The notes under the pieces are model-generated. The model was not told the DNA's origin. It searched no databases and worked only from the letters and a program-made list of their open reading frames with translations. This document shows positions 727 to 62,012 of a stretch of DNA of 64,000 nucleotides, in pieces. The stretch is from Strigamia acuminata (Eukaryota): the NCBI GenBank assembly GCA_949358305.1, contig OX442314.1, forward strand, positions 8,246,001 to 8,310,000. The letters run 5' to 3'. Both the position numbers and the translations under genes were made by a program. Each line of letters opens with the position of its first letter. Positions within the stretch are counted from its first letter, which is position 1.

Positions 727-2113
727 TTAAATAAAGTAGCAAAGAAGCAGAGTTCCATTTGGCATCCGAATTTCGCTAGAGCGAATTAAGCCGTCTGGTC
801 CTTCCTTCACGGAGGTGATGTGGCCCAGCTTCCCCGTCATTCTAGGTTTATTCTCGTCTTCAATGATGACAACGTCGCCAACATTAAATTTCGTGCGGCT
901 TGTAGTTCCTTGATGTTGTCGGAGTTCGATCAGGTATTCTTTGGTCCAACGATCCCAAAAACGACCAAGGAGTGTTTGACAATGTTTCCACGCTCTTAAA
1001 ATGGTTTCCTTCGACCCCGTACCAGTGGAATACTTCGGTGCAATCGGCAAAAACGAAATTCGTCTTCCCAGCAAAAAATGAGAAGGGGAAAGGGGTAATT
1101 GCTCACTAGGATTATCATATAAATATGTTAAAGGTCTGGAATTTATAACTTCTGCCAAAATCGTAACGAGTCCTTCGTAATCAAGTGAGTTCTTTCGGAT
1201 GGTTTTTTTCAATGTCAATTTTACAGAGCGCATTATTCGTTCTCAGAAACCGCCCCACCAAGGCGCGGTCTCCACAATGTATTTCCATTTAATTTGTTTC
1301 TCTGTAACAAATCCCTGGAATTGGTCTTCCAGCAAACATTTCAAAAATAAATTAAGTTCTTCATCTGCTCGTATAAATGTCTTCGCATTATCGGAATACA
1401 TTGTTTTCGGAATCCCTCGCCTACAAATGAAACGCTTCATTGCATCTATGAAACGCTCAGTTGACAAATTTGAAACTAGCTCGAGGTGGACCGCTCTCGT
1501 GACTGCACATGTGAACAACGCAATATATGTTTTTGCCCCTAACTTGGTGAAGAGAGGCCCGGCAATGTCTATACCACAAACTTCAAAAGGTTCACAAGGT
1601 GTAATTCAATCCACAGGCAGCAAACCCCCACTTTTCTTTAGCCAAACGCCCCTGTACTTTCCTGCACTGCACACATTTGTTGATTACGCTCTGGATGGTT
1701 TTCAGTGCTCGTGGTATCCAAAACTGTTCGCGAAAACTGGCTAGTGTGTCGGCCAGTCCACCGTGGAGTAATCTGTCGTGTTCACCACGTATGATTAGTT
1801 TGGTAATCGGGTGCGAATGAGGAAGAATACAGGGTTCTCGAACATCTCAAGGCACGTCTGCCAGTTGCCATCTGTGGGTTGCTCGAATTATTTCGTTGTC
1901 ATCTAAAACAGGTGTAAGTTTGTATATTAGTGAGGTTTTTTGCAACAGTTTTTTGTTTTGTAATTGTCTAATTTCATCTCCGAAGTTGGTCTGCTGCAAG
2001 TATTTCACCCAATATTGTTCACTCAGTTTTAGTTCTTCATTTGTTAGCGGTTCACCATTTCGATTTTTCGTTTTTAAATTGTTGACAAATCGAAACGTCC
2101 ATGCTGTGACTCG
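727..2113 (-). pseudogene. BEL/Pao LTR retrotransposon pol remnant (integrase region), frameshifted
   Basis: Fragmented minus-strand ORFs with BEL/Pao integrase motifs: FTCAVTRAVHLELV..RRGIPKTMYSDNAKTF (DDE core), PLSPSHFLLG..FWDRWTKEYL..VGDVVII..GPDGLIR (C-terminal region), and a HGG..FWIPR..CVQC zinc-binding segment near 1650-1790. Stops and frameshifts lie between the pieces. Confidence 0.9.
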
Positions 2114-3518
2114 TGTTGCGATCCTCCGGGCTTTCCACTCTGAAACAAATACTTACCTTGTTTTGAGCGGTTCGCAATTGAGATGCCGTTTATAGGCCTT
2201 ATACTCGGTTGCCTGTGTGGTGTCTAGGGGTAATTTTATGAAAGGAAAACGATAGTTTGGATTGAATAAAATACAAAAATCTTTTATTTGAATGGAAATT
2301 TACAAATATAATTATGAGAAATATAATTATTACATTTACTAAGAATTATGAATTTAGTAGTTAAAACTAGGGAGAGAAAACAAGAAAATGAGTGAGAAAT
2401 GAGAAATGAGTCAAGCGAAACGGTTACGCTCACTTGAAACAAAGGAAAAAGGTGCCAACAACGACGGTTGATCGTTGGGCGCGAGTGTTTGGCGCGCAAC
2501 AAACGGCAGCCTGTTGCGCTCGGAAAATGGCGAGTAGGACTCGCCTGAGAAATATTATTTCTCGTTGAAGAACAGCTACTTTTATCTGTAAACTCCGGAG
2601 TAAAGCTCGCAGGTGGTTTACAGATAGCGGCGACGATTCTCTACGAGAAGTTTGCCGTTGACGACGACGATGAGTCTCGGAACAAGTCGGACGAGACTCA
2701 CAATGGTTGACAACGAGCGGGTACAAATTCCTTCGCTCGTTCGATGGCGATGAACAGTGAACTCCGGAGTAAAGCTCGCAGGTGGTTCACTGTCTTCTCA
2801 CGAAGGTTGACGGCGACGGGTTGCTCGATCGACGGAGGCGAATCACGGAACAAGTCAACGCGACTCGACGGCGGCGGGTGAGCGGAGTTTCTCGGGCGTT
2901 ACCCGAAATCCGATGCCTGTGCGCAAATGTGGCTGGTTCCACCGAAATCTATTCTTTGGAAACAGCAATGTCTCTTAACTCACCAAAACGTGTAAACCCG
3001 GTCAGCACTTCGAATCCTTGTTTGAAGTTCTTTCGTGATGATCATGTGGGTTGTTTGTTGTTGGTGTGTTGTGTCAAGAGTGGGCCAAACCGCCAAAATT
3101 TGGGGTTTTATGCACTCTCGAAATCTGCGCACAAAATATGTGCAGATTACTAATTTTGGCACAACAAAGGATTTTGTTGCGCCAAAAGCCGTTATTATTG
3201 CACCATAACCGTTGGCTAAAGAAAGGGTGGCGTGTGCCAAGCACGCTTCAAATATGCGCAGCGGATGCTGCGCAGACGTCTTAATTTAGTGAGACAAAGG
3301 ATTTTGCCTCACTAAGCGGTTAATTAACGCCTCACCCCACACAATATTGGGGTGAGCCGTGCTAGGGGAGGATTTTCTCCCCTAATTATGTAATCGTTTG
3401 GCGTGTGCCAAACATAAATATTACCAAAATAAAATGTAAATACAACTTCTTTTGTGGTGACTCTTTTATTAAATAAAACACAACCGCAATTGAATAAAAG
3501 TGGCTCAGGGTCACCACA
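2114..3518 (-). mobile_element. Solo LTR (1405 bp) of a Gypsy-like family inserted in the BEL/Pao remnant
   Basis: Minus strand starts TGTGGTGACC and ends GGATCGCAACA (TG...CA). It is flanked by a CTCG direct repeat (2110-2113, 3519-3522). Removing it restores the BEL reading ..KKLKRV-TAWTFRF. Its termini resemble the LTR at 6958 (TGTGGTGACC...GGATCGCCGCA). Confidence 0.85.
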
Positions 3519-4045
3519 CTCGTTTCAGCTTTTTCCACGTACTAAATCGAGTATAATCGATGTCTGGTTCCGCAATTGTTATCAATGTCATATTCACTTC
3601 CATGTCATCGTCCTCGATGTTTGGATTCACGTTCACGTCTTCATTTGGCCATTTTGATTCGATGTCTGCTAGCCATGCCGGTCTTTTCAACCAGAATGGT
3701 TCTTTGGTAAGTTGTTTCACGTTCACTCCCCTCGTAACCAGGTTGGCTGGGTTGTCCTTCCCTGGGCAATGGCGCCAATCGTCTCTTGATGTATTTTCGA
3801 CAATTTCCCGCACACGATTGTACACGAACGTCGCTGGTCGGTTCTTGGTGTCGCGGATCCAATGTAAAACTATCTTTGAGTCGGTCCAAATCGTGAAGTC
3901 CTCACATCCGAGCGTTGTCTTTAAAGTTGAGATTAGTCTTGATGCTAGTAAAGCACCCATCAGCTCCAACTTTGGCAGTGTTAACTATTTAACTGGTGCG
4001 ACTCTACACTTTGAAATAACAAAATCAACATTAACCTTCCCATAG
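3519..4045 (-). pseudogene. BEL/Pao pol remnant (RNase H-like region)
   Basis: LELMGALLASRL..WTDSKIVLHWI..FVYNRVREI..WRHCPGKDNPANLVTRG..FW are typical BEL/Pao motifs. The region is truncated upstream. Confidence 0.9.
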
Positions 4046-6460: not shown

Positions 6461-6709
6461 ATGAAATTACAATTCATCTTGTTCTGTGTTTTTGTTATTC
6501 TGTCCTGCTTGGGTAAGTTATATTTTGAAAAAAATAATTCATTCACTATTAAGCGTTGGTGATATGTTATAACCTGATTAGCAGTGAGGGCAACTGAGAG
6601 CTGTGAGCTAAGTCGTTGCCAGATAGACTGTGATTCGAAGGTTGGGTATGAAACTTATTGTGACCAAAATGACGACTGTGCGTGCCGTATAGAGGCCCCA
6701 AATGAATAA
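6461..6709 (+). CDS. Secreted CS-alpha/beta defensin-like peptide 1 (59 aa; exons 6461-6512, 6582-6709)
   Basis: Spliced: MKLQFILFCVFVILSCLAVRA-TESCELSRCQIDCDSKVGYETYCDQNDDCACRIEAPNE. Hydrophobic signal peptide, phase-1 GT-AG intron, C-x4-C-x3-C-x9-C-x5-C-x-C, AATAAA downstream (~6749). Paralogous to four other loci in the window. Confidence 0.85.
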
Positions 6710-6957
6710 TTTTAACAATTTTAAAATTAATGTAATTAACTGAAACAAAATAAAAATTTAAAATGATAAGAATATTGTTTTTATAATTGATTCATTTACT
6801 TTGTGCCATGCCTGGCACTACCCGAGTGGTGTTTCTCGCTTTTTGTCGTCGTTTTCGTCACCACAGGTCTGGTCATGTGGTGCCGACCGGTCTCCGCCTA
6901 GCGGCTACCTGAGAAAATTTTAAAAATGTTGAAAAATTGAAAATATTTGAGATAAAT

Positions 6958-8035
6958 TGTGGTGACCTCAAATATTCCTATTTGAGTGCGCACCATATTT
7001 CCAAATTGTCTTATAAACATATTCAACAAACTTATATGTTTTGTTTCAATGTAAATTGAAATAAAACATACATTAATAAAATATAAAACAAGACACAATA
7101 TTACCCAAATAATATTGTGTTTTGCAGCAAGTTTTGGCCCAGCAACAGCGTCAACCAATCGCGCTGCAGCGTGCATTGCTTTGATGATGCTGCTAGGCGT
7201 GTGCCTGGGCGGAGCATCCCTTCCCCTCGCGCGTGCCCGGCTCGATTGTTGCACACGACCCGAAGGCGGCCGTGTGTGATCTTCATGCAACTCGTCATCT
7301 GCGCAGCTTTTCTGAGCAGATTTAGAAGTGAGCCAAACGGTTTTGGCCCACTCTTCCCGCACTCTTGATTCCACCTCCAAACTGTTCACAACCGTGTCAA
7401 ACTTCTGCCAAAACTGCAAAGTGTGATCTGTGATTCTTGGACGAATTGAGTTTCATCGCTGGTCTGTACCCACTGTACGGAATAGCAACTTTCTAGCTTG
7501 AATTACTACGAGTAATTTAAGCCATTTCTGTGTGTGAAACTAACATCGAGTTTACTCTGTTAGTTTGAAGGCTTTGTGTCGAGTTTAACTCCACAAGGCG
7601 AATTGTGTTAAGACGGATTGTTACGTCGAGCTTGCTCCGTAATAATCAAATCGCTGTGTGCAAGACGTATTCTCGTGTTGAGCTTGCTCCGCGAGGATTT
7701 TTAGTATATTTTAGCAAAGTATTTTAGCGTCGAGTTTACTCCGCTAAAATCCCGCGCTCACACGACGCCATCGACGCCATTTTGGAGCCAACGGTCAACT
7801 GTGAGTGTCCAAGTACGAAGAGAAACCAGATCGACCCAGTCATTACACTTATTATTTCGCATTATATTCGGGTGTATTTAAAACGATTAAAACAATCTAA
7901 TTTTTCCTTTACTCTGTGTAAAATCATTCCCCTAGACAACCATTTGGCCACAGAGTAGAAGTCCTGTACGGCATCTCACCGACGATTGCTTATTAAATTT
8001 ATATAATTTAATAAGTAAAAACCCGGATCGCCGCA
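6958..8035 (+). repeat. 5' LTR (1078 bp)
   Basis: Direct repeat of 18711-19788. I noticed only one substitution (7478 C vs 19231 G). Confidence 0.95.
7537..7750 (+). promoter_or_regulatory. Array of five bulged stem-loops in the LTR (copy at 19290-19503)
   Basis: Hairpins at 7537-7566, 7571-7599, 7616-7647, 7669-7698 and 7721-7750. Each has an 8-10 bp lower stem of different sequence, a 2-nt UC/UU bulge, and GAGY-loop-RCUC. The function is inferred. Confidence 0.7.
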
Positions 8036-8037
8036 CT

Positions 8038-8055
8038 TGGGGGCCCGGCCGGGAT
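8038..8055 (+). promoter_or_regulatory. Primer-binding site, tRNA-Pro-like
   Basis: TGGGGGCCCGGCCGGGAT begins after a 2-nt spacer (CT) following the LTR. It matches the classical tRNA-Pro PBS TGGGGGCTCGTCCGGGAT at 16/18 positions. Confidence 0.8.
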
Positions 8056-8127
8056 TGTTTTGATTATTAAAATCCGATTTTTGCGAAAAAATCCTTTATT
8101 TCCATTGTTCTTTTTCAATTTGACAAA

Positions 8128-11019
8128 ATGGCGACGCCAATGCAAATTGTAAAACGACAACGAGGTCGACCAAGCACTCAGAAACGAGCAGCGACGGTTT
8201 TGCCGGCTCTCGAGCCTGAAATGCTTATGGAGAAAATTATTTCTGAAGAAATAACACCAGTTCCAGATCCGAAACAACTTAAGGATGCTGAAAATGAAGT
8301 TGCTAGAGCATTAAGCGCTTCAAGTGCGAGTTCTAACGACCAAGAACTCCCGCCACTTCCACTGGAGGAAGTGGAAAATACGTTACGTGAAATGGAAAGT
8401 GAATCGTCTCACGAATCACCTCCTCGCATGACCATGTTGGATGCTTTGAGAAATCAAGCACGCCAAGATGGCGCCCAAATAACGGACGACATGACGGTGG
8501 AAGAGATTCATCGCGCCATGATACGACTTCACACTGACCGAGCCGTTTCAAATTTACAATTTGAAATGGAACGAAAAGAAGCTGAGCTTCAACAACAAAA
8601 AGCGGAGGTTGAGCTTCAACACATGGAACTCAATCGACAAAATGAGGAATTTCTAGCCCAAAAAGCTAGAGAATACAGATTAAAAGGTGAAGTGGAAGAT
8701 CTTTCTAAAATGAATACTAGAAATGAACTTTCAATTCGCTCACACCAAGAGGCGCGAAGACAGCTCGAGCTTACCAAAAGTAAGCTGGAGCAGAAAAATA
8801 AAGAATTGATTGATTTGGCAGACCACTACCAACGCAATCATAATCAACTAGTGAGATATGCTGCTGAATTAGACACACGTGCTAAAACACAGCGTACTCG
8901 CGAAAGCAAAATAGCTAAGCGTGAAGACGAGATTTTCCACTCGCTGGATCAACCCAGTACGAGCGGACAAGTCAAGTCTAGCGGCCCTGCTAAGCGATTA
9001 CAACCAGAATCGCAAAATCAAATAAACGAGAATGAAATTCTCCGAGCTGATTTGTTACGCGCTCAAGAAGAGCTTGCAGAAATGAAAGACCGTTTGCAAG
9101 CAAGAAATTATACTGACCAATTGGTGCAACCAGAAATGGCTGCGCCAACTGTCCCTATTTTGACTCCCGAAACAATAACAATTTCTGTTGTTTCAGAGTT
9201 AAGTAGCCAATCTGGATTATCGAGTGATGACGACCAACGTTCGCGTCGTCGCCATCGCTCAAAAAGAAAACGTCCTTCAGATTCTGAGGAACGGAGAGCT
9301 GATCGCAATCCGCTCCCTGGTAATCGAAACCCTATTTTTCACAACAGTGACCGACTGTTGGGGATAGTAGACGATCGAAATAGACGGCATGAAACTGGTA
9401 TTCATGTTACTCGAACGATACCACTGACTCAACAGCAAGACTCGTCAAAAAGAAGTCGACGAGACACCAATCCAACACGCGAACCGCCGGACGGACATGA
9501 AAGCCCGCCAGGTGGGGGTCAGTATAGAAGAAATCCACCAGATGGAGGAAATCCAGATGGACATGGAGATGGACCACCTGGAGGTGGACGTCGACCGCCC
9601 GACGATGACGGCGACCCACCCGACCCACCTGAAACACCACATTTTAACACGCCTTCAAATTCACAATCTGATTCAAGGTCGGATTCTGATGTGAATGCGC
9701 AACAAGAACGCGATAATCGACATCGATCTCATCGACGTCGACATCGAGGCCATTCTTCTCGGCGTAATACACATTATTACACTGCTGAAGAAATTGATCG
9801 ATTATTAGCTGATCGTCGATCTTCCGATCGATCTGACGCTACTGCCGATAATGCTGATATTGCATTACGACAAAAAATTGCACAATATACTGCCAACAAC
9901 TGGACTCACGATCTAGTTGATGAAAGAACTATTAGATGGGATCACATCAAACCCGCTTTATTCGATGGAGAATGGGAAGCTGGATCCACTCTTTTAGATG
10001 AAGTGTTACGAATTTCAAGGTTGAATGGCATTGCATGTCACACTGCTTTGAAAAGAGTAGTACCAAAAGCTCTTATAGATCGAGCTGAGAAATGGTTTTA
10101 TTCTAAACAATTTCAAAACTGGAATCACTTTGTAGAGGAATTCATGACTGAATATGGGGAGTCAAGTGAAGACTTACTACAAATGTGGGATAATCTTTCT
10201 CAAAATAAAGGCGAAAGTCTTCGCTCTTATTTAAGAAGGACTGAGGATTTATTGGTCACTCTCCCTTATACAATGGGAGATGCAGCCATTGATCGTCAAT
10301 TCCGACGTGGATTGACAGATTATTCAAAAAATGTTCTACTTTCAGTACGAGCACCTTATCCGGGTGGTTTCGCTGAATTAGCCAAATTTATGCGAGCCAA
10401 TCAAATAAGGATTGACGAAAATTATAAAGCTTATCTACCAGCTGATGAAAAAGTTGCGTACGCTAAGCGACAGCAACGGAGAAAGGAATTAGCAAAAGAC
10501 ACACGTTTTGCTAACACCCCTCTTTTGCAACCCCCAAAACGAGGAGATTTTTTGGCAGAGACTGCTAAGGAATCTAAAAAGGGATCGGATGGGAAAAATC
10601 CACATCCAACCCCTAAAGCTCACTTAGCCGAAGTGACTGAAATGGAAACTGCTTCTGAACCAGAGAAATCTGACTCGGAACCAGAAAGCGAGGCTGCAGC
10701 TGCTTTATTAGCCCGTAATAACGCAGTAGCTCGAAAATTTGGACCAAAGATGGCGCCTAAAAACGTTACTTTTGGTTCACCAAAGACAGACGCGCTCAGT
10801 AGATCGAAGTCGCCGACCCCTAAAAAGGACGAAGCCAAACGTTCAAGTTCGCCTTCGCCAAAAGTCGCGAAATCGCCTGCTACTGACCCGTGTAATATTT
10901 GTAAAAAATTGGGACATTGGGCTAAAGAATGTCCTGATAGGAAATCGAGCAAAGACAAGATCATTGAGGAGTTCGAAAAATCGATGAAATCAATCGGCGA
11001 GCTTCTAAAAAACTTGTAA
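8128..11019 (+). CDS. gag: Gag polyprotein (963 aa)
   Basis: CCHC zinc knuckle CNICKKLGHWAKEC. Capsid-like segment LIDRAEKWF..WNHFVEEF..QNKGESLRSYLRR. Long N-terminal coiled-coil-like and low-complexity regions. Confidence 0.92.
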   Translation: MATPMQIVKRQRGRPSTQKRAATVLPALEPEMLMEKIISEEITPVPDPKQLKDAENEVARALSASSASSNDQELPPLPLEEVENTLREMESESSHESPPRMTMLDALRNQARQDGAQITDDMTVEEIHRAMIRLHTDRAVSNLQFEMERKEAELQQQKAEVELQHMELNRQNEEFLAQKAREYRLKGEVEDLSKMNTRNELSIRSHQEARRQLELTKSKLEQKNKELIDLADHYQRNHNQLVRYAAELDTRAKTQRTRESKIAKREDEIFHSLDQPSTSGQVKSSGPAKRLQPESQNQINENEILRADLLRAQEELAEMKDRLQARNYTDQLVQPEMAAPTVPILTPETITISVVSELSSQSGLSSDDDQRSRRRHRSKRKRPSDSEERRADRNPLPGNRNPIFHNSDRLLGIVDDRNRRHETGIHVTRTIPLTQQQDSSKRSRRDTNPTREPPDGHESPPGGGQYRRNPPDGGNPDGHGDGPPGGGRRPPDDDGDPPDPPETPHFNTPSNSQSDSRSDSDVNAQQERDNRHRSHRRRHRGHSSRRNTHYYTAEEIDRLLADRRSSDRSDATADNADIALRQKIAQYTANNWTHDLVDERTIRWDHIKPALFDGEWEAGSTLLDEVLRISRLNGIACHTALKRVVPKALIDRAEKWFYSKQFQNWNHFVEEFMTEYGESSEDLLQMWDNLSQNKGESLRSYLRRTEDLLVTLPYTMGDAAIDRQFRRGLTDYSKNVLLSVRAPYPGGFAELAKFMRANQIRIDENYKAYLPADEKVAYAKRQQRRKELAKDTRFANTPLLQPPKRGDFLAETAKESKKGSDGKNPHPTPKAHLAEVTEMETASEPEKSDSEPESEAAAALLARNNAVARKFGPKMAPKNVTFGSPKTDALSRSKSPTPKKDEAKRSSSPSPKVAKSPATDPCNICKKLGHWAKECPDRKSSKDKIIEEFEKSMKSIGELLKNL

Positions 11020-11052
11020 GCGCGCATCCAGACGGTCTAGTGGATGCGACGC
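11007..11052 (+). promoter_or_regulatory. -1 programmed ribosomal frameshift signal (gag-pol)
   Basis: A_AAA_AAC heptamer in the gag frame (11007-11013), followed by the hairpin CGCATCCA (11023-11030)/TGGATGCG (11041-11048). The -1 frame is open into pol (..KLVSAHPDGLVDATP). Confidence 0.85.
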
Positions 11053-14000
11053 CTACCGCCTCGGAAAATGAACTAACACCATCTCAGATTTTAGATGAAT
11101 TTTTAAATACCCAGATTAAATTAGAATTAGAAAATAATTTAGTATTTCCAAAAATTGATGTTTCCAGTTTAAGGCTTGTGCTGCAAAATGAAAACATCAC
11201 TGAAGAATTTTTTAAAGAAAAAGTTCAACAAATAAAAGTTGATTGGGAATCTAAAATAAAAGATGCTGTTACTTTACTAGATGGAAAAGCTAGGCCCACA
11301 CCTGAAATTGTTGAAAGGTCAGGTAAAATTGATTTACCTGGTCTTGATGAATGCATTGAAAAATTAATGGCTACAACGCTAGTCACTAATGATTTATTGG
11401 ACGAATTACCATTGGATCCGCCAATAGAAATTAAGCCACCGCGACGTTTTAAATGCAAGTACGCGGACATACCAAACAGCAATGATTTGCCGACGATTCG
11501 ATTGCAGACGGCAAACGGTATGATAACAGGGATGTTAGACTCTGGAGCTAATCGAAGCTTCATGGCCTACTCCGTAGTAATTTCGCTGAAACTGGAAGAT
11601 GAAATTCGACCAATAGGACCGGATGTGAGAGTTACGACTGCTTCAGAAGATGTAGTCCCTGAAGGGACTCTCCTACTTTCTTTTGCATGGACACACGGGA
11701 TGTTAAGTCATCCATTCATAATTTTAAGAAATAAATATCCTATTATTTTATTAGGATGTGATTTCATGAATCGACTCAATATTCAACCAAATCCTAAGAC
11801 CATGTCTTGGAATTTTGTCAAGTCTTTGAAAGAAGATTTACCTTTTGTTCCTCAAGCGATTCTTGATCGTTATCAAGAGTTTCTTGATCCACCCGAAGAA
11901 ATCATGAAACGCGACTTTATTAAAGCAAATCACATGAAAGCTGGTTCCGCCACTGCATGTCAAGCTAAAGTTGCCGATGAAGAAAATATAGTACAAAGAC
12001 TTGTTAGGGATGCTAATTTGTCAATGGAAAATAATTTAATGCTTGAAAAAGTATTAAAGAAACATGAAAAGATTTTATCTCGCCGACCAGGTAGAACACA
12101 CCTCGTTAGGCATGAAATTAAACTGGACACTAAAGTTCCTATTAGAGTTCCGTTTAAAAGCGTAAATCCACAGAAACGTGAAATTATCCGTCAAATCTGT
12201 CAAGATATGTTGGATAATGGGTACGTCGAACAAGCCACTGGAGACTATGGAATGCGAATAGTTCTAGTGATGCGTCCGGATTGTGATCCGAGACTCTGCA
12301 TTGATTTTAGACCACTCAATGCACATACATTATACGATTTTCCTCAAATGCCGAGCATTGAGGAAATCTTGCGAGAACTCGGAAGATTTGAATGGGTCAC
12401 AACGATAGATTTGTCAAAAGGCTATTGGCAGATAGAGGTTCATCCGAACGACCGTGCTAAAACTGCGTTTTGGAGCCCTTTGGGTCGACTACAATTTCGA
12501 GTCATGCCCTTTGGCCTCGTAAATGCACCGTCAACTTTTCAAAAGTTGATAGAGAAGATTTTGGGGGACGCCTATCGAAAATTCGCATGGGCATACCTCG
12601 ATGATATAATTATTATATCAAAAAATTTTGAAGAACACATGATTCATCTGGAAGAAATTCTGAGTAAACTTGAAAATGCAAATCTTCATGTTCATCCAGA
12701 AAAATCAAAATTTGGCAGAAAAGAATTAACTTTTCTTGGCTACAAGTTAAGTGTTCACGGAGTTAGTGTCGACCCTAAAAAAGTCGCCGCCATTAAAGAA
12801 ATGCCAGCTCCTTCAAATTTGAAAGAGTTGCAAAGATTTTTGGGAATGGTGAACTTTTTTCACCGATTACTTAAAAATCTGGCAGTAATGACAGAACCTC
12901 TACGTCCTTTACTCAAAAAGGATGTGGAATTTATTTGGTCAGAAATTCATCAAGAAGCTTTTGATCAAATAAAAGATGCTTTAACGAATGCAGAAACAAT
13001 GGCCATGCCTGATTTGACAGAACCATTTATTGTGCATACCGACGCCAGCAGAAAAGGACTAGGCGCCGCGCTTATGCAAATGAGAGAAATCGATGATCAA
13101 AATATCGAAGTGCCTTGTGTTTATGCCAGCAGAAGTTTACAACCTGCTGAGATAAATTACAGCGCCACAGAATTGGAGTGCCTAGCGGTAATCTGGGCAT
13201 TACGTAAATTTCGACATTATTTGGAATTTACAACATTCATAGTAAGGACTGACCATCAAGCATTAAAATGGTTGATGCAGTTGGACGAACCTGCTGGAAG
13301 GTTAGCGCGTTGGCAAATGGAGCTAATGCGCTACTCTTTCGAAATACAATATATTAAAGGTCCACTAAATGTTTTAGCGGATGCTTTATCCAGATCACCG
13401 ATTGATAAACCAGAAAATCCTGAAGATGATGGAGATAATGACGAATTATTATCTTACTGTCCATCACCACAACGAAAATGGAAAATGGGAAAATTCCATG
13501 AGCTTCCTGTCTCCACATTAGAGGAAAAGGAAGATCATGAATTCGTCAACTATTGGACTAAAATTTATGACTCCTCTGAGGAATCAGATGACGTCATAAG
13601 AGCGCAAATTTCAAGGAAATTCCAAGTTCCTTCGTCAAATGTTTTAATAAAAGCATTTGTCGCCAAAATTGTAGAACGTCTTGATTGTGAACCTCCCACA
13701 AGGGAAGACATAATCAAGGCCCAAAAAGAAGATAAAGTTTGCCAATTGATGCGTAATTTTTTAAATTGTAATCAATTTCCGCCTGACGTCACAACGCGAC
13801 TCCAGAGGAAACAATATAGAAAACACGCAACCACCTTCTTAATTGAAGATGACTTATTAATGCAATTTCATCCCACAATGTCTGATGAATTGGGGGAGGA
13901 TGGGAGAGCACTCAAAGTTTTTGTACCTCAGACATTGAAGTATAAAATTATTTGGCTGATGCATGGCCACCCACTTTCTGGCCACCCAGGAATTGCAAGG

Positions 14001-15488
14001 ACTCTTTATCGAGCACGCCGAATTTATACCTGGAAAGGCATGAAATCGGACATTACGAGATTCATTCGACATTGTGAGCGTTGTCAAGCTTGCAAACCTC
14101 GAACGAAAGGACAAATTGAAGCAGCGCAAATGGGTCCTTACAGCCCATTTGACTGTCTAAGTGTTGATTTGACCGGCCCAAAACCTCGGACGCGCAAAAA
14201 CAACACACATATTTTAGTCATACTTGATGTGGCAACTCATTGGCCAGAATTATATCCAATGTGTAACCCCACTGCTGGAAAAGTAGCAAATTGCATTTAT
14301 CACCTTTCCATGAGCATGGGATTCCCTCGTAAAATTATTTCTGACAACGGCCCGCAATTTCGTGCCCAAGTCTTTAAAAAATTTTGTGAAAAGTTCAAGA
14401 TGGTTCCAACACCAACTTCAACGTATCACCCACAAGCTAACCCGGTTGAAAGGGTTAACCGTGACATCAAATATTTGGTTGCAATTTATTCATCTGTTCA
14501 TTCCAAATGGGACGAATATTTGCGTGAATTTGCATTTAGTTTGAGAACTACGGTGACGAGAGGAAGAGACTTCTCTCCCGCATTTCTTAACTTTTTTCGC
14601 GAACTCAGAGTACCTTGGGATCCAAGAATACCTGAAGGAATTTTGGTCGTAGATCCAAAAAACCCACATTTATACGTGCAAAAATTAGAAGCCGTTATCG
14701 CCGAAACATATCAGCACATGATGTCGCACGTGTTAGATTTGCGTAGACGAGTTAATCTTAAAAAAGAAGGTGAGAAGTTCTCCAATTTTAAATTAAACGA
14801 TTTAGTTTGGAGAGATTCTCATGTTTTGTCGAGCGCTGCCCGCGGCATTGCAGCTGGCATCGCTGATAAAAGAACAGGACCTTATGTAATAACCAAAGTA
14901 TTACAGGGAGGTTCAGTAGAATTGAGAAAGCTAGAAAATAACGAAATATTTCCAGCTGTCCATTCGTCTGAATTAACTCCGTATTTCCCGAGTTTCGACC
15001 AGGAAGTATGGTTAGAAGGCGAAGAAGTCGGTCAAAAGACTGAAAATATAATTAATACGTTAGATGACGATGAATTAAAGAAAATACCTGTCGATAATTC
15101 ATCCAAACCACAAATGGAGTCAGACCTCGTGAATAACGACGTTGAACTTCGTGACAGTTTCAAAAAGCTTGAAATTGCTAAAAAAATAAATAAAAAGGTG
15201 TTTTTAGAAAAGAAACAAAAAACATCTGAAATAAAAGACTCATCTGACTCAGTCTCCGATGACAATGAAGACGGCGATTTAAATACAATAAATCCCTCGC
15301 CGACAAAGAGATATAATCTTCGGACTCGTAAACCGAGAGGAAAAAACAACATGTGTCTTCTCCCCTCGATAACCTCGAGATCCAGGGATCAGCCGTATGA
15401 CGTAAGGAGCAATTCCTCAAGCCATACTCAAACCAATCAAACAGTAAGATTGGATGACGTCACTAACAGCGACGTTACCCAAACGTAA
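11013..15488 (+). CDS. pol: Pol polyprotein (protease, RT, RNase H, integrase), expressed by frameshift
   Basis: LDSGA aspartic protease; RT IDLSKGYWQ..MPFGL..YLDD; RNase H TDASRKG..ELECLA..TDH..ADALSR; integrase H..H..CERC, D..D(SDNG)..E and GPY motif. No stops. Confidence 0.97.
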   Translation, partial: LVSAHPDGLVDATPTASENELTPSQILDEFLNTQIKLELENNLVFPKIDVSSLRLVLQNENITEEFFKEKVQQIKVDWESKIKDAVTLLDGKARPTPEIVERSGKIDLPGLDECIEKLMATTLVTNDLLDELPLDPPIEIKPPRRFKCKYADIPNSNDLPTIRLQTANGMITGMLDSGANRSFMAYSVVISLKLEDEIRPIGPDVRVTTASEDVVPEGTLLLSFAWTHGMLSHPFIILRNKYPIILLGCDFMNRLNIQPNPKTMSWNFVKSLKEDLPFVPQAILDRYQEFLDPPEEIMKRDFIKANHMKAGSATACQAKVADEENIVQRLVRDANLSMENNLMLEKVLKKHEKILSRRPGRTHLVRHEIKLDTKVPIRVPFKSVNPQKREIIRQICQDMLDNGYVEQATGDYGMRIVLVMRPDCDPRLCIDFRPLNAHTLYDFPQMPSIEEILRELGRFEWVTTIDLSKGYWQIEVHPNDRAKTAFWSPLGRLQFRVMPFGLVNAPSTFQKLIEKILGDAYRKFAWAYLDDIIIISKNFEEHMIHLEEILSKLENANLHVHPEKSKFGRKELTFLGYKLSVHGVSVDPKKVAAIKEMPAPSNLKELQRFLGMVNFFHRLLKNLAVMTEPLRPLLKKDVEFIWSEIHQEAFDQIKDALTNAETMAMPDLTEPFIVHTDASRKGLGAALMQMREIDDQNIEVPCVYASRSLQPAEINYSATELECLAVIWALRKFRHYLEFTTFIVRTDHQALKWLMQLDEPAGRLARWQMELMRYSFEIQYIKGPLNVLADALSRSPIDKPENPEDDGDNDELLSYCPSPQRKWKMGKFHELPVSTLEEKEDHEFVNYWTKIYDSSEESDDVIRAQISRKFQVPSSNVLIKAFVAKIVERLDCEPPTREDIIKAQKEDKVCQLMRNFLNCNQFPPDVTTRLQRKQYRKHATTFLIEDDLLMQFHPTMSDELGEDGRALKVFVPQTLKYKIIWLMHGHPLSGHPGIARTLYRARRIYTWKGMKSDITRFIRHCERCQACKPRTKGQIEAAQMGPYSPFDCLSVDLTGPKPRTRKNNTHILVILDVATHWPELYPMCNPTAGKVANCIYHLSMSMGFPRKIISDNGPQFRAQVFKKFCEKFKMVPTPTSTYHPQANPVERVNRDIKYLVAIYSSVHSKWDEYLREFAFSLRTTVTRGRDFSPAFLNFFRELRVPWDPRIPEGILVVDPKNPHLYVQKLEAVIAETYQHMMSHVLDLRRRVNLKKEGEKFSNFKLNDLVWRDSHVLSSAARGIAAGIADKRTGPYVITKVLQGGSVELRKLENNEIFPAVHSSELTPYFPSFDQEVWLEGEEVGQKTENIINTLDDDELKKIPVDNSSKPQMESDLVNNDVELRDSFKKLEIAKKINKKVFLEKKQKTSEIKDSSDSVSDDNEDGDLNTINPSPTKRYNLRTRKPRGKNNMCLLPSITSRSRDQPYDVRSNSSSHTQTNQTVRLDDVTNSDVTQT

Positions 15489-15698
15489 CTTCCGGTATTT
15501 GAACTGATCACTTCGCGTCTGAGTTCACTTCGATCTCACACGTGTGCTAAGTGCTCATCCCCAAAAAACCAAAAGCGAAACAACTGGATTATTTCAACGG
15601 GATTCTTCAATTGTAAGTAGTTTTTTCTTTGGAATTTTCCAAGGAAAAACTAATAAATTAATTTTCGTTTTTCTTTTCCATTTGGATTAGTCGTTCAA

Positions 15699-18536
15699 AT
15701 GGAAGGAGAGGAACCGAAAGAAGGAAGCGAAGCCGGCGCCAACAGCCTCGAATTAGAAACAAATTCGACGCTGCTTGGTTCCGCAAACACTTCGAATGCA
15801 TCCGTGGATGTCACCGAAGAGTCCGCCGAAGCGTCCGCTGAAGCTCAAGCCGCTCTAGCCGACGCTGCTGCCCGTTTGCCAGTCACGCCGTCTCAGCCCC
15901 GACTTCGAGGAGGCCTATTCGCCGATCCAAACGGCGAAACTCGTGCACAGAGACACGACCGGGTAAATAATTTAAAATAAAATTACCTTTCAGTCATGAA
16001 AAGTAATTAAAAGTGCATTTTCACTCCGAAAAAGCAAAAAGTTCGTTGGTAACGCCTTCGCAAGAAGACGCCGCCATTATTATCATCAGATGGCGCTGTG
16101 TCTCATTTTTGAGGCGTTGCTACGGTAACGCTCCAAACACTGAAACATAGCCGTCGGAAACAACGTTTTTTACGATTTTTCAAATATTTTGAAAAAATTT
16201 AATGAATCTAAACTGTCGAATGAAATCTCACCCGTGATTTTATTCACTGAAAATTCGGAAATAATTATTTTACACGAAAAAATGGATTTTAATTATTTCT
16301 TCGAATATTTTTACAGATTATCCAGCTTCGGGAGACGCATCTCGAACTACACCCCGATGTTCCGACCGCTCCTGGTGTCTGGCGACACGCATTGCCGCCA
16401 GAAATCATAAAGTCGAAAGGACGACTGACGTTTTGGGCGGCCCGACACAAATTCTCCAAGGCCTTAAACAAGCGATGGGGAACGAAGTTTCGGATCGCCT
16501 ATTTAATCGATGGATTCGGTCATCGCGACGCCCTCGAGTGGGCAATGAAGCGCGACACCTTCGGACCACTGCGAAACGTGTTGCTCGACTTCGCCTTCAC
16601 AGTGATCGCACAAGAAACGCGAGACCATCGCCGTTACTTCAACGCTCCTGCATGGGAGCGTCGACAGATTTTGGAGGACATTTTCCAACGCTTGGATCAA
16701 ACCAAGGCCGAGGTTGTACGCCTCTACAACGAATCTTTCCGTGTAACAACGGACGGAAAGAAACGTTGGGTGCCGACATGCCAGTCGGAGATGCATCAAC
16801 TAGCCATGGGCGGATGTTTCCATGCAGATTTCGTGCCGAACCCGTATCCAGAGCCTGAGCCCCGGGTACAGGTCGCTTCCACCATCCACGTGGTGCCACC
16901 GCGCTCCACGTCGAGGTCACGATCATCGAGGTCGCCCTACAGTGGCCGTCGCTCCTCCCCAACACAGTCGTCGGGGGAAGGCGCCATTGGAGGGTTACCT
17001 CCACTCCAGAAGGCTCGTCATCGCTCACATCACCGACGCGAGCCGACGCCGCCGAAAAGACATTCGAAGTCCGTATCGAGACCCACATCCCGAAGCCGAC
17101 CTCGAGTGCAATCGCGTCAATCTTCCACGAGGAGTTCACTCTCGTCGCGTGAAGAACGATCCAACGCTTCACAGCTTACCGCTTCCTCCTCCGGCCGGAT
17201 TGACTGGTCGGACGAGATAGCGAAGGAAGATCAACGCATCGCCGCATTGCAAGCCGGTCAGGGAGACGTTAACACCTCTTTGCCGTTCGCTTGCCGTCCA
17301 GTCACCAGCGACATGCGACCAGATCCATCGGTGCCCGTGCCACAAGTGACATCGGTCATCCGTTTTGAGGGATACGTCTCTCACGAACCATTTCCCGCAC
17401 AGGAGTGCGCTGATCTCTGGAGGCGATTCTCATCGTTTCCCGAGACAGCCCAAACGATGTACCTCGCGCATCTGGACGAATACCAACTCGCTCAGATCCG
17501 CGAAGGTGAGAAGGAATGGCAATGGCTTGCGCGAGAGCTTACGTCGTGCAAGTCCGACAAGCAACTGCAACGGACGCTGCAGAAGATGAACAGGAAGTTG
17601 TCGGAGGGACTTCTTCGAATCCTGTTCCAAGGAGTCTTTCCCGACCCACAGATTGCTCTGGCCGCCGCCACTCGATTGTGGACCGTGCCGCTAGGGCTTC
17701 CACGAGCCTTGCTGGACGATTGGGAGTCAGTTCGCCCCGATCCTCCAACGATGCTCGCCGAATTGACGCAACAAGCCGAGGCGACTGGCGAAACTCCGGC
17801 TGGATCCGCCATTCGACTACGGCAGGAATGGGCTGCGCTGAAGCAGCGACGCACAGCAGAACGAGCCACCGCCCGTCCCGCTGGCGCACCACCGTCATCC
17901 GCAGCTCCACTCCACGCTGCCATCACGGCAACGTCGAGTGTTTCCCGTGCGACCGAGGCACCGAGTTGCAACATCTCGTCTCCGATGGAATGGCTCGACA
18001 GCGACGATCGCGAGTTCGTCGTGCCTGTGGCCTGCGGTGCCAGACCAAAGACGCGCACCCCGGCTTTACGCAGATCCAGATCCCTCTCGATCTGCAAGAA
18101 GTCGCCGCCACCGCCGCCTCCTCCAAAGGATTCGCCGCCAAGAGATAGGGGATCGAGTATGGCCACCCACCTCACCGCCTATCAACGTTTGCGCTCATTA
18201 TACGCCTTTTGCTACATAACGAGCGCAACGAAAACGATTCTCCAGAACAGCGAGGATTTATGCAACCGAGTCCTCGCGTGGCTGGAAAACCACATCAAGG
18301 AACAGCAGCCGTGGATCCTGCATCAACGCCTGGTGTTCGCTCGAATTACGCCTCAAGACCCGCAGGAGTACTTCGAGATGGGTTTTGGACGAAGGGATGG
18401 TGTGGACCGCATCAAGCAAGTGTGGCTCCACATCAACCCTGGCTTCCGGTCAGGACCAAACGCCGGCCGACCTTTGTGCACCGTCACCGAGCACAAAGAT
18501 CCAAACGATCATTCGACGGACATGTTGCCGAAATAA
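15699..18536 (+). CDS. ORF3, spliced non-env accessory protein of unknown function (~827 aa; exons 15699-15962, 16317-18536)
   Basis: A phase-0 donor CGG|GTAAAT at 15962 and acceptor TTTTACAG|ATT at 16317 join the 93-aa and 714-aa ORFs in frame. The frame is open from 16317 to 18536. There is also a probable 5'UTR intron at 15613-15690. Confidence 0.72.
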
Positions 18537-18696
18537 TTAGGGAACACGCCCGTTTATTAAAAATGATTCCTTTTTTATTTTTATATTGTAATGAAAAAGA
18601 ATAAATATATATCCTGTTTCATTTTACTTTGAAACCTTGTGTATTTATTCCTATACTTACCTGTCTCTTTTTGGAAAAGAATAAGATTCTTTCTTA

Positions 18697-18710
18697 AAAG
18701 GGGGGGGAAG
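18697..18710 (+). promoter_or_regulatory. Polypurine tract
   Basis: AAAGGGGGGGGAAG immediately precedes the 3' LTR. Confidence 0.9.
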
Positions 18711-19788
18711 TGTGGTGACCTCAAATATTCCTATTTGAGTGCGCACCATATTTCCAAATTGTCTTATAAACATATTCAACAAACTTATATGTTTTGTTTC
18801 AATGTAAATTGAAATAAAACATACATTAATAAAATATAAAACAAGACACAATATTACCCAAATAATATTGTGTTTTGCAGCAAGTTTTGGCCCAGCAACA
18901 GCGTCAACCAATCGCGCTGCAGCGTGCATTGCTTTGATGATGCTGCTAGGCGTGTGCCTGGGCGGAGCATCCCTTCCCCTCGCGCGTGCCCGGCTCGATT
19001 GTTGCACACGACCCGAAGGCGGCCGTGTGTGATCTTCATGCAACTCGTCATCTGCGCAGCTTTTCTGAGCAGATTTAGAAGTGAGCCAAACGGTTTTGGC
19101 CCACTCTTCCCGCACTCTTGATTCCACCTCCAAACTGTTCACAACCGTGTCAAACTTCTGCCAAAACTGCAAAGTGTGATCTGTGATTCTTGGACGAATT
19201 GAGTTTCATCGCTGGTCTGTACCCACTGTAGGGAATAGCAACTTTCTAGCTTGAATTACTACGAGTAATTTAAGCCATTTCTGTGTGTGAAACTAACATC
19301 GAGTTTACTCTGTTAGTTTGAAGGCTTTGTGTCGAGTTTAACTCCACAAGGCGAATTGTGTTAAGACGGATTGTTACGTCGAGCTTGCTCCGTAATAATC
19401 AAATCGCTGTGTGCAAGACGTATTCTCGTGTTGAGCTTGCTCCGCGAGGATTTTTAGTATATTTTAGCAAAGTATTTTAGCGTCGAGTTTACTCCGCTAA
19501 AATCCCGCGCTCACACGACGCCATCGACGCCATTTTGGAGCCAACGGTCAACTGTGAGTGTCCAAGTACGAAGAGAAACCAGATCGACCCAGTCATTACA
19601 CTTATTATTTCGCATTATATTCGGGTGTATTTAAAACGATTAAAACAATCTAATTTTTCCTTTACTCTGTGTAAAATCATTCCCCTAGACAACCATTTGG
19701 CCACAGAGTAGAAGTCCTGTACGGCATCTCACCGACGATTGCTTATTAAATTTATATAATTTAATAAGTAAAAACCCGGATCGCCGCA
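18711..19788 (+). repeat. 3' LTR (1078 bp)
   Basis: Direct repeat of 6958-8035. Confidence 0.95.
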
Positions 19789-20515
19789 CTATATCAAAAA
19801 ATGTTTGAAAAGACAGGAGTAGGAGCAGACCAACCTTGAATATTCTGCGCTTTTATTATCTTCTGGGTATGAATCACACTCAGAAGATAATAATATCAAC
19901 ATTTATGATAATCATGCTCAAGAAATTGCAGAAATTTGTAAAAAAAATTGAACACACTTTGGAAAAATTTAACGACTTGTTAAATGCCAAGCAAATTTAG
20001 CACAACCTCCATTTGGACATTTTATTAAATTGTAATAATTTGTTGAGTTGCAGGAATAAAAAATAATTTTTTATTCATTTTAGATGTTTGAATATTGAAC
20101 CTTTCTCCACCTACACAGCTCCGTCTAGCGGCCAGTTGAAAACATATGGAAAAATGTCAAAAAATTTCAGAAAATCTAAAAAAAATGGCCTTAAATTTTT
20201 CACATATTTTTCCAGAATGATAAAAATGAACAAACTGAACACTTGAACAAATCAGAAAAATCTTGATCAATTTGCCCACCTGTATGTCAAACAGGGTTTC
20301 TATTCTATTTTTCTTATTGCCAATTAAAATTAACATCAAAATTTGTAGTGTCTCATAAAATCAATTGAAGAAAAGAAAATTCCAGCGACGGCCATTAAAT
20401 AAACATAATTACCTTTCTCTCTCTCTCCACATAATACCGTAGTCCAACTAAAGCAAACAAGACTTCCAACAATCCACCAGTCAACTTATTTCTCCTTCAA
20501 AGGGATCCATCCAAA

Positions 20516-20741
20516 ATGAAATATCTAGCCATCTTGGTCTTTATCATTCTGTCGTGCCTAGGTATTGTATATTTTGCACAAAAATAAATCATTCATCGTT
20601 GACATTTTATATTTTTTAATCGAATTAGCATTGACGGCTAATGCGGGCTGTCGTCTGGATAGATGCAGAGCAGATTGCTACGGGATTGGTGAGGATGGTA
20701 ATTGTGAAAAAAATATATGCCACTGCTCGCCACCAAAATAA
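20516..20741 (+). CDS. Secreted CS-alpha/beta defensin-like peptide 2 (52 aa; exons 20516-20561, 20629-20741)
   Basis: MKYLAILVFIILSCLALTANA-GCRLDRCRADCYGIGEDGNCEKNICHCSPPK. Signal peptide, phase-1 intron, C-x4-C-x3-C-x8-C-x4-C-x-C with GxC. Confidence 0.87.
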
Positions 20742-21176: not shown

Positions 21177-21429
21177 ATGCAATATCAATTCATCATGTTC
21201 GTCGTTTTTCTGTCGTGCGTAGGTTAGTTATATTTTGCATAAAAATAGTTTATTTATTATTGAGCGTTGATGAGATGTTTTATTTTGGCTAGCAATGACG
21301 GCAAATGCGAAATGTGATCCTAATGAATGTACTTCGAAGTGTCGTAGTAGCGGTGGCGGTACCGGAACTTGTTCTTACGAACTTGGAAGTTACGTTGCTC
21401 TTTGTAATTGCAAAAAGTTGCCGAAGTGA
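21177..21429 (+). CDS. Secreted CS-alpha/beta defensin-like peptide 3 (60 aa; exons 21177-21222, 21293-21429)
   Basis: MQYQFIMFVVFLSCVAMTANA-KCDPNECTSKCRSSGGGTGTCSYELGSYVALCNCKKLPK. Same intron phase and position; C-x4-C-x3-C-x9-C-x10-C-x-C. Confidence 0.87.
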
Positions 21430-21849
21430 CGGGAAGACCAAAGTGCCTAAACAAACCATGAAACGAACTGGACATCACCTTCTGGAGACGCCGTAAACAT
21501 AAAATAAAATTAAAATTGGAAATAAATACAATAAAATTAAAATTACAAGAAAAACTTCTTATAACATTAAATATTTTAATGTTGAAATCCATTGTATTTT
21601 TCTTATTGCTAATTAATATTTATCCTAGTAATCAGCAACAAACAATTGATTCTAATAAATTAAAATATTAAAATTTAATAGTATCTCATGAAATGAATCG
21701 TCCGGAGTTAATTAAACACCATTCATATACGTGGCCATTAAATATATATATATTTATACCGTATCGTACTACGGCAGTCACATCCAGCAACCAAAATCTT
21801 CACAATTTGCTAGTAAACGTGTTTCTCTGGCTTGTTTCATTCATCAAAA

Positions 21850-22188
21850 ATGAAATATCTCATCATCTTGGTTTTTGTTATTCTGTCGTGCATGGGTAAG
21901 TTATATTTTGCACAAAAATAATTCATTCATCAGTGAGCATTGACATGTTTCTTTTTTTGGTTAGCAATGATGAATGGCCACAGACATAGTGGGTACGGCG
22001 ATAGATATGAAGGGTACGGCGATAGATATGAAGGGTACCGCCATAGACATAAAGGGTACGGCCATAGATATGCAAGTAGAGGATACGGTGACGCGGTCTG
22101 TAATATTGAGAGATGCATGGAAAATTGTAAGCTTAGAGGTTGGAGCGGTTATTGTGTAAGAGGTTACTGCAACTGCAGATATCCCTAG
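21850..22188 (+). CDS. Secreted CS-alpha/beta defensin-like peptide 4 with Gly/Tyr/Arg/His repeat extension (89 aa; exons 21850-21895, 21965-22188)
   Basis: MKYLIILVFVILSCMAMMNG-HRHSGYGDRYEGYGDRYEGYRHRHKGYGHRYASRGYGDAVCNIERCMENCKLRGWSGYCVRGYCNCRYP. Same gene structure as the paralogs. Confidence 0.88.
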
Positions 22189-22465
22189 TGAGGAAAGGGC
22201 CTGAAATGTCCAAACCAGGCAGAAGTAAAAATTTTAATACTGTTAAAAATTAATGGAAACTCATTAAAGAAAATAAAAAATGAAAAAGGATTACGAATTT
22301 TGTTTTTGGAATGGCATTAATATTTATTCCAGTCATCAGTAAACGATTAATTTAAAAATAATCAGAGTATTGAAATTTATAATGTTTTGTGAGAACAATT
22401 GAACGGAATTAATAAAACAAAATTGATCAGCGACCATTAAATGTAATTCTTATTAAAGAACCAGA

Positions 22466-23625: not shown

Positions 23626-23697
23626 TAGCAGAGGATGGTTTCGATCCATCGGCCTCTGGGTTATGGGCCCAGCACGCTTCCACTGCGCCACTCTGCT
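23626..23697 (-). tRNA. tRNA-iMet(CAT), eukaryotic initiator
   Basis: AGCAGAGTGGCGCAGTGGAAGCGTGCTGGGCCCATAACCCAGAGGCCGATGGATCGAAACCATCCTCTGCTA. A1:U72 pair, GGG/CCC anticodon stem, ATCGAAA T-loop, and a downstream oligo-T terminator. Confidence 0.96.
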
Positions 23698-60558: not shown

Positions 60559-60965
60559 CTAGAAAGACAAATAAAAAAAAATTTCCAAAATTAATAACTC
60601 AAAAATTAAAAAAAATAAATAAATAATAATATAAATTCACTTGGAAGTGACATTTCCTGTTCTATGTTGACTGTTGGCATTTTGATTTAAGCCTATTTCT
60701 GGATTTGCGAAAACATTTGTTGTTGATATGACAAGTGCATGATACGGTGTATTACAACTCACACAATGTCAAGATGAAAGCAAATCAATAGACTTCTGCA
60801 ATGGCACAACAAACCAATATTCTTTTCATCAAAATCCAAAAAATAATAACAAACCAAACCCACACATTAACGCTCACATTTTAGATACAAAAATGTACAT
60901 TTTAGATACAAAAATGGACTTTTTAGATACAAAAATGCACTTTTTAGCTGAAAAATGCACTCTTA

Positions 60966-61991
60966 CAAGGGGAGAGCACCAATAAGCTATCACAGATTGT
61001 TGTAATATTAAACAAGAAGGATTGTTATATCATGCTGAATGAGACCCTAAAATAATTTCATTCCATGAACAGCCAACAATGCAAACAATGAGCTGAAAGT
61101 TGGCACTATTTTGTCTGTGTATACATCAAATCTGAGCAATCAGGCCTAGTGTATGAATACTGTAAACAACAGTTGCTAGGTAAAAAATAGTTCCAAGATC
61201 CAAGTTCAATTTTATCATTTGAGATTCAATGATGTCATTTCCTCTTTTGATATCACATGACATATGACATCAGAACTTTGTTCAACAACATGACTGTCTT
61301 CATGAAGACAATAATAGTTTGTAGTGGTGGTTCAGTGGTTAAGGCAATGGACCAGGAATCTTTCCACACAGGTTCAAATCCTGTTGGGTGTGAATATATT
61401 TACATTTATTTTTTGTTAAATTTTAGCAGTTATTTTAATGTTTGTAATTTTATATTTGTTTCCAGAAAATTTTAATTTGGTTAATTTTAATTTTTTAACA
61501 AATATAAAATTACAAACATTAAAATAACTGCTAAAATTTAACAAAAAATAAATGTAAAAATTTTCACACCCAACAGGATTTGAACCTGTGTGGAAAGATT
61601 CCTGGTTCATTGCCTTAACCACTGAACCACCACTACAAACTATTATTGTCTTCATGAAGACAGTCATGTTGTTGAACGAAGTTCTGATGTCATATGTCAT
61701 GTGATATCAAAAGAGGAAATGACATCATTGAATCTCAAATGGTAAAATTGAACTTGGATCTTGGAACTATTTTTTACCTAGCAACTGTTGTTTACAGTAT
61801 TCATACACTAGGCCTGATTGCTCAGATTTGATGTATACACAGACAAAATAGTGCCAACTTTCAGCTCATTGTTTGCATTGTTGGCTGTTCATGGAATGAA
61901 ATTATTTTAGGGTCTCATTCAGCATGATATAACAATCCTTCTTGTTTAATATTACAACAATCTGTGATAGCTTATTGGTGCTCTCCCCTTG
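60966..61991. mobile_element. ~1-kb palindromic PIF/Harbinger-type MITE with tRNA-Ser-derived segments (copy 2)
   Basis: TTA TSD and near-perfect palindrome. tRNA-like segment at 61321-61393, mirrored at ~61564-61637. Confidence 0.85.
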
Positions 61992-62012
61992 TTAGTCACA
62001 AAAATGTACTTA

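Follow-up and report, generated by a model that had tools for sequence, protein, structure and literature searches.

Five bulged hairpins with a TAR-like core in the LTR of a Gypsy-type retrotransposon

The window analysed here, a stretch of 64,000 nucleotides, contains a retrotransposon (element A) whose LTR carries five small hairpins, each with a pyrimidine bulge beneath a GAG/CUC upper stem. All five lie where the original prediction had placed them in a Gypsy LTR, at 7537..7750, and they are repeated identically in the 3' LTR at 19290-19503. Judging from the sequence, we tentatively read this array as a multivalent site for an arginine-rich protein encoded by the element itself, most likely the product of ORF3, which would govern post-transcriptionally what becomes of the RNA. 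The features on which this reading draws are collected in Table 1.

Table 1. Features of element A, of LTR B and of their hairpins, in window coordinates
Feature	Position	Strand	Basis or remark
5' LTR of element A, TG...CA, 1078 nt	6958..8035	+	matches 3' LTR at 1077/1078
Putative core promoter: initiator-like CCACTCT (predicted +1 = 7350), weak TATA-like word some 30 nt upstream	7319..7356	+	motif sharing with LTR B
ATG-free stretch ending at gag start, containing the array	7288..8127	+	likely 5' leader
Hairpin A1: 9-bp stem, UC bulge, GAG/CUC, UUUA loop	7537..7566	+	RNA folding, pattern rule
Hairpin A2: 8-bp stem, UC bulge, GAG/CUC, UUUAA loop	7571..7599	+	RNA folding, pattern rule
Hairpin A3: 10-bp stem, UC bulge, GAG/CUC, CUUG loop	7616..7647	+	RNA folding, pattern rule
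Hairpin A4: 9-bp stem, UU bulge, GAG/CUC, CUUG loop	7669..7698	+	RNA folding, pattern rule
Hairpin A5: 9-bp stem, UC bulge, GAG/CUC, UUUA loop	7721..7750	+	RNA folding, pattern rule
Predicted intron inside LTR, just 3' of the array (GTGAGT ... CTAAT ... CCCCTAG)	7801..7935	+	splice motifs
Primer-binding site, tRNA-Pro-like	8038..8055	+	start resembles the Cer1 tRNA-Pro site TGGGGGCCG as given in the available part of PMC10309623
gag, 963 aa, Retrotrans_gag, one CCHC knuckle	8128..11019	+	domain search
pol, PR-RT-RH-IN, open frame, overlaps gag end	10968..15488	+	ORF list, domain search
Predicted first coding exon of ORF3: ATG, 88 codons, then GT donor	15699..15962	+	264 nt, phase 0, in frame with acceptor 16316
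Main exon of ORF3, coding for an orphan protein that has helical domains and lacks a transmembrane stretch	16317..18536	+	ORF, domain and structure searches
Polypurine tract	18697..18710	+	directly before 3' LTR
3' LTR of element A, same five-hairpin array at 19290-19503	18711..19788	+	LTR comparison
BEL/Pao remnant interrupted by solo LTR B	727-4045	-	Peptidase_A17, DUF5641
Solo LTR B, diverged, TG...CA, target-site duplication CGAG, inside BEL/Pao remnant	2114..3518	-	LTR comparison
Hairpin B1: 9-bp stem, G-UU bulge, GA/UC, CUUGU loop	2839..2867	-	covariance-model E 0.037
Hairpin B2: long stem with one bulged C, GAG/CUC, CUUUA loop, core lacking an adjacent bulged U	2753..2794	-	folding
Hairpin B3: 10-bp stem, G-UCC bulge, GA/UC, CUUGU loop	2670..2701	-	covariance-model E 0.77
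Hairpin B4: as B2; three double changes in first nine distal-stem pairs	2584..2625	-	folding

The hairpins of LTR A and their core

The five hairpins share one plan in both LTRs, stem-R-UY-GAG-YUU(A)R-CUC-Y-stem, and each of them appears when the + strand is folded, in the minimum-energy and the centroid structure alike; folding the entire LTR gives their lower-stem pairs probabilities of 0.80-1.00. A pattern rule requiring a stem of at least 7 pairs, derived from A1-A5 themselves and hence post hoc, matched five times per LTR and nowhere else in the window on either strand, while among 5000 shuffled versions of LTR A one match was obtained in 23 and two in none. Both LTR A and the second LTR in the window, LTR B, are hairpin-rich throughout, U3 included, where both strands fold with z about -8. 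The Rfam search returned eight weak matches at E <= 10, none of them near the gathering score and none to a TAR family; a pseudoknot match on A3 (E 9.2) was rejected.

The lower stems had been described as unlike in sequence yet all able to pair, and this held: 59 of 60 cells are paired in register, although pairwise stem identity is only 3-10 of 16 bases, and 7 of the 12 stem pairs show changes on both sides. The covariation score of 0.75 compares with 0.27 +/- 0.08 in shuffled alignments, none of 500 being as high, for what are paralogous copies in one LTR scored against a structure model drawn from the same copies. Equally, the bulge and upper stem proved as invariant as claimed, with U, GAG, UU and CUC constant in all five hairpins.

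Other parts of the original prediction stood in modified form. The G-U pairs do fit the sense strand, + showing four of them and not one C-A apposition, but four out of four is weak on its own; fold energy does not pick a strand (z -2.68 on + and -3.74 on - for the 251-nt array region), and the + strand form is the more stable in only three of the five hairpins. What had been drawn as a four-pair upper stem closed by a two-base loop is better written as a YUUR tetraloop (UUUAA in one case), the two descriptions being equivalent in a known di-loop fold. Covariation, G-U pairs and the kept bulge do speak for selection on RNA structure, yet the array, with its spacing of about 52 nt and its similar spacers, arose by tandem duplication. 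These are not alternatives: duplication came first, and its products were then kept by selection.

In an arginine sandwich, as set out in the available part of PMC6189040, a bulged pyrimidine joins the stem in a triple, beneath which lies the paired base that immediately precedes the bulge, the pocket consisting of A22 and U23.A27-U38 in TAR and of A39, U40U41 and U40.A43-U66 in 7SK. In sequence and secondary structure this layout was found in all five A hairpins and in two of the four hairpins of LTR B. Constant across A1-A5, B1 and B3 are the purine below, a U-first pyrimidine bulge (of 2 and 3 nt in B1 and B3), a G-C and an A-U pair (R-U-Y-G-A / U-C-Y). The accessible part of PMC5311481 counts CUUG, UUUAa and CUUGu among the di-loop folds, in which positions 1 and 4 pair, and this explains the exchange of C-G for U-A at loop places 1 and 4; since the loops of these seven hairpins all belong to the di-loop class, the cap looks structural and the bulge functional. 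The simplest reading is that a tight cap sits on a pocket for arginine, in which triple formation and binding are predicted. As to the likeness to TAR that had been proposed, the core is of the arginine-binding type, but the loop is not of the TAR type, the predicted position is +188 to +401 instead of the 5' end, and no Tat homologue was found; the array is TAR-like in its core, yet no TAR proper.

A second LTR family and searches further afield

LTR B shares with LTR A only the termini, a 14-base initiator block and a 62-base acceptor block. A covariance-model search with A1-A5, a kind of check that the original prediction had proposed for the genome, was run on the window and returned B1 as the best match outside element A. 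B1 and B3 read stem-G-U(U or CC)-GA-CUUGU-UC-C-stem, and the relaxed rule that describes them matched these two and the ten A copies in the window, and nothing else; shuffled versions of LTR B gave two such matches in 1 of 5000. B1 and B3 alternate with B2 and B4, which retain C-GAG-CUUUA-CUC, and paired changes are seen again between B1 and B3 and between B2 and B4. The U-bulge core is therefore kept in seven of nine distinct hairpins (A1-A5, B1, B3) and not in the other two, and in B1 and B3 the bulged form lies 0.3 and 0.6 kcal/mol above the lowest-energy fold, in which the two-pair upper stem is open. Taken together, recurrence of a TAR-type arginine-binding core in a second LTR family is supported by these sequence comparisons. 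The U3 part of LTR B (window 3160-3390, -) holds another set of three hairpins, with an AAAATCC top on unlike stems (motif at 3376, 3305 and 3175).

Further afield, the relaxed rule gave 21 scattered matches, at most two per locus, in 148 distant reverse-transcribing loci (1.31 Mb, both strands), and the covariance model of the A hairpins had no match in the 84 of these loci that were searched with it; because the loci are distant elements, many of them without LTRs, such counts give a background rate and not proof of absence. In viral contigs a two-core pattern reached 25 loci, none folding as a bulged hairpin, and an LTR-block pattern reached none, while the single metagenome match of the LTR-block pattern reads as chance in bacterial-looking DNA. 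A search of the open-access literature found no TAR-like array in an LTR retrotransposon.

Element A, its leader and ORF3

Element A (6958-19788, +) is a young, intact Gypsy-type LTR retrotransposon with gag, pol and the orphan ORF3 and without env; paired LTRs, primer-binding site, polypurine tract, gag, and pol in the order PR-RT-RH-IN place it in Ty3/Gypsy. The 18-nt primer-binding site presumably matches a tRNA end in full. The best relatives of its RT-RH are no more than 47% identical, so that the element represents a distinct Gypsy lineage. Its host reads as an AT-rich eukaryote that has spliceosomal introns and is probably an arthropod. Its RT as a single query had no match in viral contigs, whereas an RT alignment as query reached 68 viral and 80 genome loci (25-46% identical); a homologue search with the Gag capsid region found none. 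Gag contains two arginine patches, at aa 371-382 (nt 9238-9273; seven arginines in 12 residues) and aa 531-547 (six in the ten residues 531-540). An errantivirus (env-bearing) identity was rejected, the top 19-residue hydropathy of ORF3 being 1.09 with no Pfam match. Although the LTRs are near-identical, a target-site duplication is absent (AAAT versus CTAT in the flanks, 6950-6957 and 19789-19796), possibly owing to recombination between two copies or to an assembly join.

Around the element, reading by eye points to four short genes of two exons each, whose starts resemble signal peptides and whose ends are rich in cysteine and defensin-like (6461-6700, 20517-20741, 21178-21430 and 21850-22190); element A lies within this cluster. 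The window also contains a tRNA-Met gene (23626-23697, -) and three copies of a repeat of about 1 kb (47806-48850 and 60949-62991), the first copy being one long inverted repeat.

The predicted promoters of LTR A and LTR B have TTTGGCCCACTCTT in common, and the TATA-like word some 30 nt upstream of the initiator is clear in B (CATAAAA at -31) and weak in A; on these motifs, transcription in LTR A is predicted to start at about 7350. From there to 8127 no ATG occurs on the + strand (10.8 expected; 0/5000 shuffles; 11 on the opposite strand), ATG being the most depleted trinucleotide of that interval. Because ATG is lacking from 7286 right up to the gag start, which is the signature of a scanned 5' leader, the array likely lies within the leader and is likely transcribed. 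Counted from the respective initiator-like sites, the A array is predicted to run from +188 to +401 and the B hairpins to begin at +215; a 710-nt ATG-free stretch spans B1-B4, LTR B having one ATG at +37 and one late. The acceptor block of the predicted LTR intron is also common to LTR B (46/62 identical, E 3e-05), and the two predicted donors, 7801 and 8015, are both downstream of the array. In both LTRs an AATAAA close to the 5' end of U3 falls within a predicted stem (7035-7070; 3455-3518), which could hide a premature poly(A) signal; the second AATAAA of LTR A, at 7075, is unpaired in the fold, and another sits between ORF3 and the 3' LTR at about 18600.

The open frame of ORF3 has 747 codons (16293-18536), 10.6% arginine and 23 RS/SR dipeptides, with an Arg/Ser-rich tract at about nt 16902-17162. 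Given an in-phase GT donor and the acceptor at 16316, ORF3 is predicted to be a spliced accessory protein translated from spliced RNA, an in-phase exon match that arises by chance in one case out of three; extra donor- and acceptor-like sites occur between pol and the ORF3 start (15613-15690). Its densest windows hold four arginines in 10-12 residues, compared with seven in 12 in Gag, an export-signal pattern scan gave no match, and its 11 cysteines are scattered, with no Cys-rich cluster. Sequence searches against 1.84 billion representatives, Atlas, Pfam, NCBIfam and PDB sequences returned zero homologues. The full structure model reached a pLDDT of only 41, making the viral structure search meaningless, and a domain model at pLDDT 70 had no Foldseek match, its best VIA hit (Z 6.1) being generic helical.

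Readings of the array and comparison with known systems

If an element protein reads the array after transcription, each bulge would fold into an arginine pocket of the TAR and 7SK kind, with a U.A-U triple and an arginine stacked between that triple and the underlying purine. The pockets would load several copies of the protein, most likely ORF3, which would itself be made from spliced RNA, and the bound, unspliced gag-pol RNA would be held back from splicing and exported, as with Rex, whose element is located in the LTR, and with CERV of Cer1. Spliced and unspliced RNA would both bear the array, so that something else must provide the selectivity. Covariation, the kept bulge, the leader position, the core in LTR B, a predicted spliced and Arg/Ser-rich ORF3, and the CERV and Rex precedents argue for this reading. 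Against a role of ORF3 stand its arginine windows, no denser than four in 10-12 residues, the failure to find an export-signal pattern in it, and the lack of any detectable likeness to known proteins; LTR B, being solo, offers no ORF3 of its family for comparison. Weighing against the reading as a whole are B2 and B4 with no bulged U, the bulged form of B1 and B3 that is not the lowest-energy one, the general richness of these LTRs in hairpins, and the use by CERV of a Cys loop. Overall we would sooner keep this account as a working one than rely on it.

Since Gag reaches seven arginines in 12 residues and ORF3 at most four, binding of Gag through its arginine patches is the main rival, and the array would then be a packaging signal or a translation-to-packaging switch. 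The two patches are the most Tat-like stretches of element A, packaging signals usually lie in the leader, and multivalency would suit capsid nucleation; however, an array upstream of the predicted donors 7801 and 8015 would be carried by spliced RNA too, the CCHC knuckle is also available for RNA, and arginine patches can be mere nuclear-localisation signals, so that we consider Gag binding unlikely, if still worth serious attention. A Tat/TAR-like use appears improbable to us: here the nascent array would be used by ORF3, or by a HEXIM-like host protein that the 7SK-like pockets decoy, to bring in P-TEFb and boost elongation from the LTR. Such a use would suit an array in the LTR downstream of the predicted start, but the predicted +188 to +401 falls past the zone where pausing usually occurs, the hexaloop of TAR is missing and ORF3 has no Cys-rich cluster. 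TAR itself, according to the available part of PMC6189040, forms at the 5' end of stalled transcripts; the core geometry is nevertheless that of the TAR bulge and of ASM3 in 7SK, an RNA to which the same source also ascribes several pockets. The start is moreover only predicted, and the true one may lie nearer the array.

More doubtful still is a host RNA-binding protein reading the hairpins, for instance in germ-line RNA transport, export or translation. Bulged stem-loops are localisation signals in insect retrotransposon RNAs, and B2 and B4 retain the apical GAG-YUU(N)R-CUC with no bulged U; on the other hand, the motif occurs in the 148 distant loci only as scattered single matches, and the fact that families A and B have diverged agrees better with an element protein that co-evolves than with a host protein that stays fixed. 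Finally, the hairpins could be a by-product of tandem duplication and of palindrome perfecting by template switching, or only generic structure. Both LTRs are indeed hairpin-rich, in U3 on both strands, the array region folds as well on the - strand, and the units of some 52 nt have similar spacers, but palindrome perfecting would erase bulges and G-U pairs, of which five out of five and four remain, respectively, and an invariant core on stems that share so few bases, recurring in family B, makes this explanation very improbable.

Returning to the favoured reading by an element protein, the arginine sandwich is described for retroviral TAR and cellular 7SK only, as far as the available part of PMC6189040 extends, and a selected array kept between two diverged Gypsy LTR families would mean either convergence on a Tat-type recognition code or an older origin of it. 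LTR retrotransposons have many orphan ORFs at the place of env, with mostly unknown functions (PMC10309623, in the part available), and one of them would here gain a short RNA target. What is special about the LTR A array is its exact pocket geometry. We raise, with somewhat greater reserve, the possibility that an invertebrate Gypsy lineage independently evolved the TAR/7SK arginine-sandwich pocket, multiplied it in the leader and coupled it to a new accessory protein made from spliced RNA; element A would then count as "complex", a retrotransposon equipped with a Tat/TAR- or Rex/RxRE-like switch of its own, and in its array the arginine sandwich would be seen for the first time in a natural RNA that is neither lentiviral nor 7SK.

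Among known RNAs, TAR is the obvious point of comparison: the upper stem of A3 and A4 is presumably the GAGC/GCUC of TAR, and the bulge of HIV-2 TAR has 2 nt. Like the TARs of HIV-1 and HIV-2 and of BIV, as portrayed in the available part of PMC6189040, the array combines a purine pair, a U-first pyrimidine bulge, a G-C and an A-U within a retroelement LTR. Unlike TAR, it comes in five copies, has di-loop caps (UUUA, UUUAA, CUUG) where TAR has an apical hexaloop, lies a predicted 190-400 nt from the start, and belongs to an invertebrate Gypsy element in which no Tat homologue was found, ORF3 showing neither a Pfam or PDB sequence match nor a Cys cluster. With ASM3 of 7SK stem-loop 1 it shares the 2-nt-bulge layout and the presence of several pockets per RNA (PMC6189040, same part), but each pocket here has its own hairpin whereas those of 7SK are stacked in one helix; nor is the array a cellular snRNA, given that no Rfam match reaches gathering level. 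The loops of A1-A5, B1 and B3 resemble the di-loop (Z-anti turn) caps CUUG, UUUAa and CUUGu, with the difference that they cap a bulge resembling a protein site, and CUUUA, the loop in B2 and B4, does not figure among the di-loops listed in the accessible part of PMC5311481.

The RxRE is located in R of the LTR and is also found on spliced RNAs (PMC6714889, in the portion available), and the array is like HTLV Rex/RxRE and HERV-K Rec/RcRE, as far as those sources reach, in being structured LTR RNA, predicted here to be on both spliced and unspliced RNA, near a predicted spliced, Arg-rich accessory gene. The RxRE is nevertheless one branched fold in that account, unlike the separate small hairpins described here, and ORF3 is about four times longer than Rex with no detected export signal. 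CERV, the spliced orphan protein of the Gypsy element Cer1, is required for export of the genomic RNA according to the available part of PMC10309623, which names no RNA element for it; no sequence link between CERV and ORF3 was found and, unlike ORF3, CERV has exons in common with gag and relies on a Cys loop instead of an arginine-rich motif. Within the same limits of that source, element A nonetheless resembles Cer1 of C. elegans: both are Gypsy/Ty3 elements whose primer site is of the tRNA-Pro type, and both have an orphan ORF in the position of env that is spliced, by prediction in our case.
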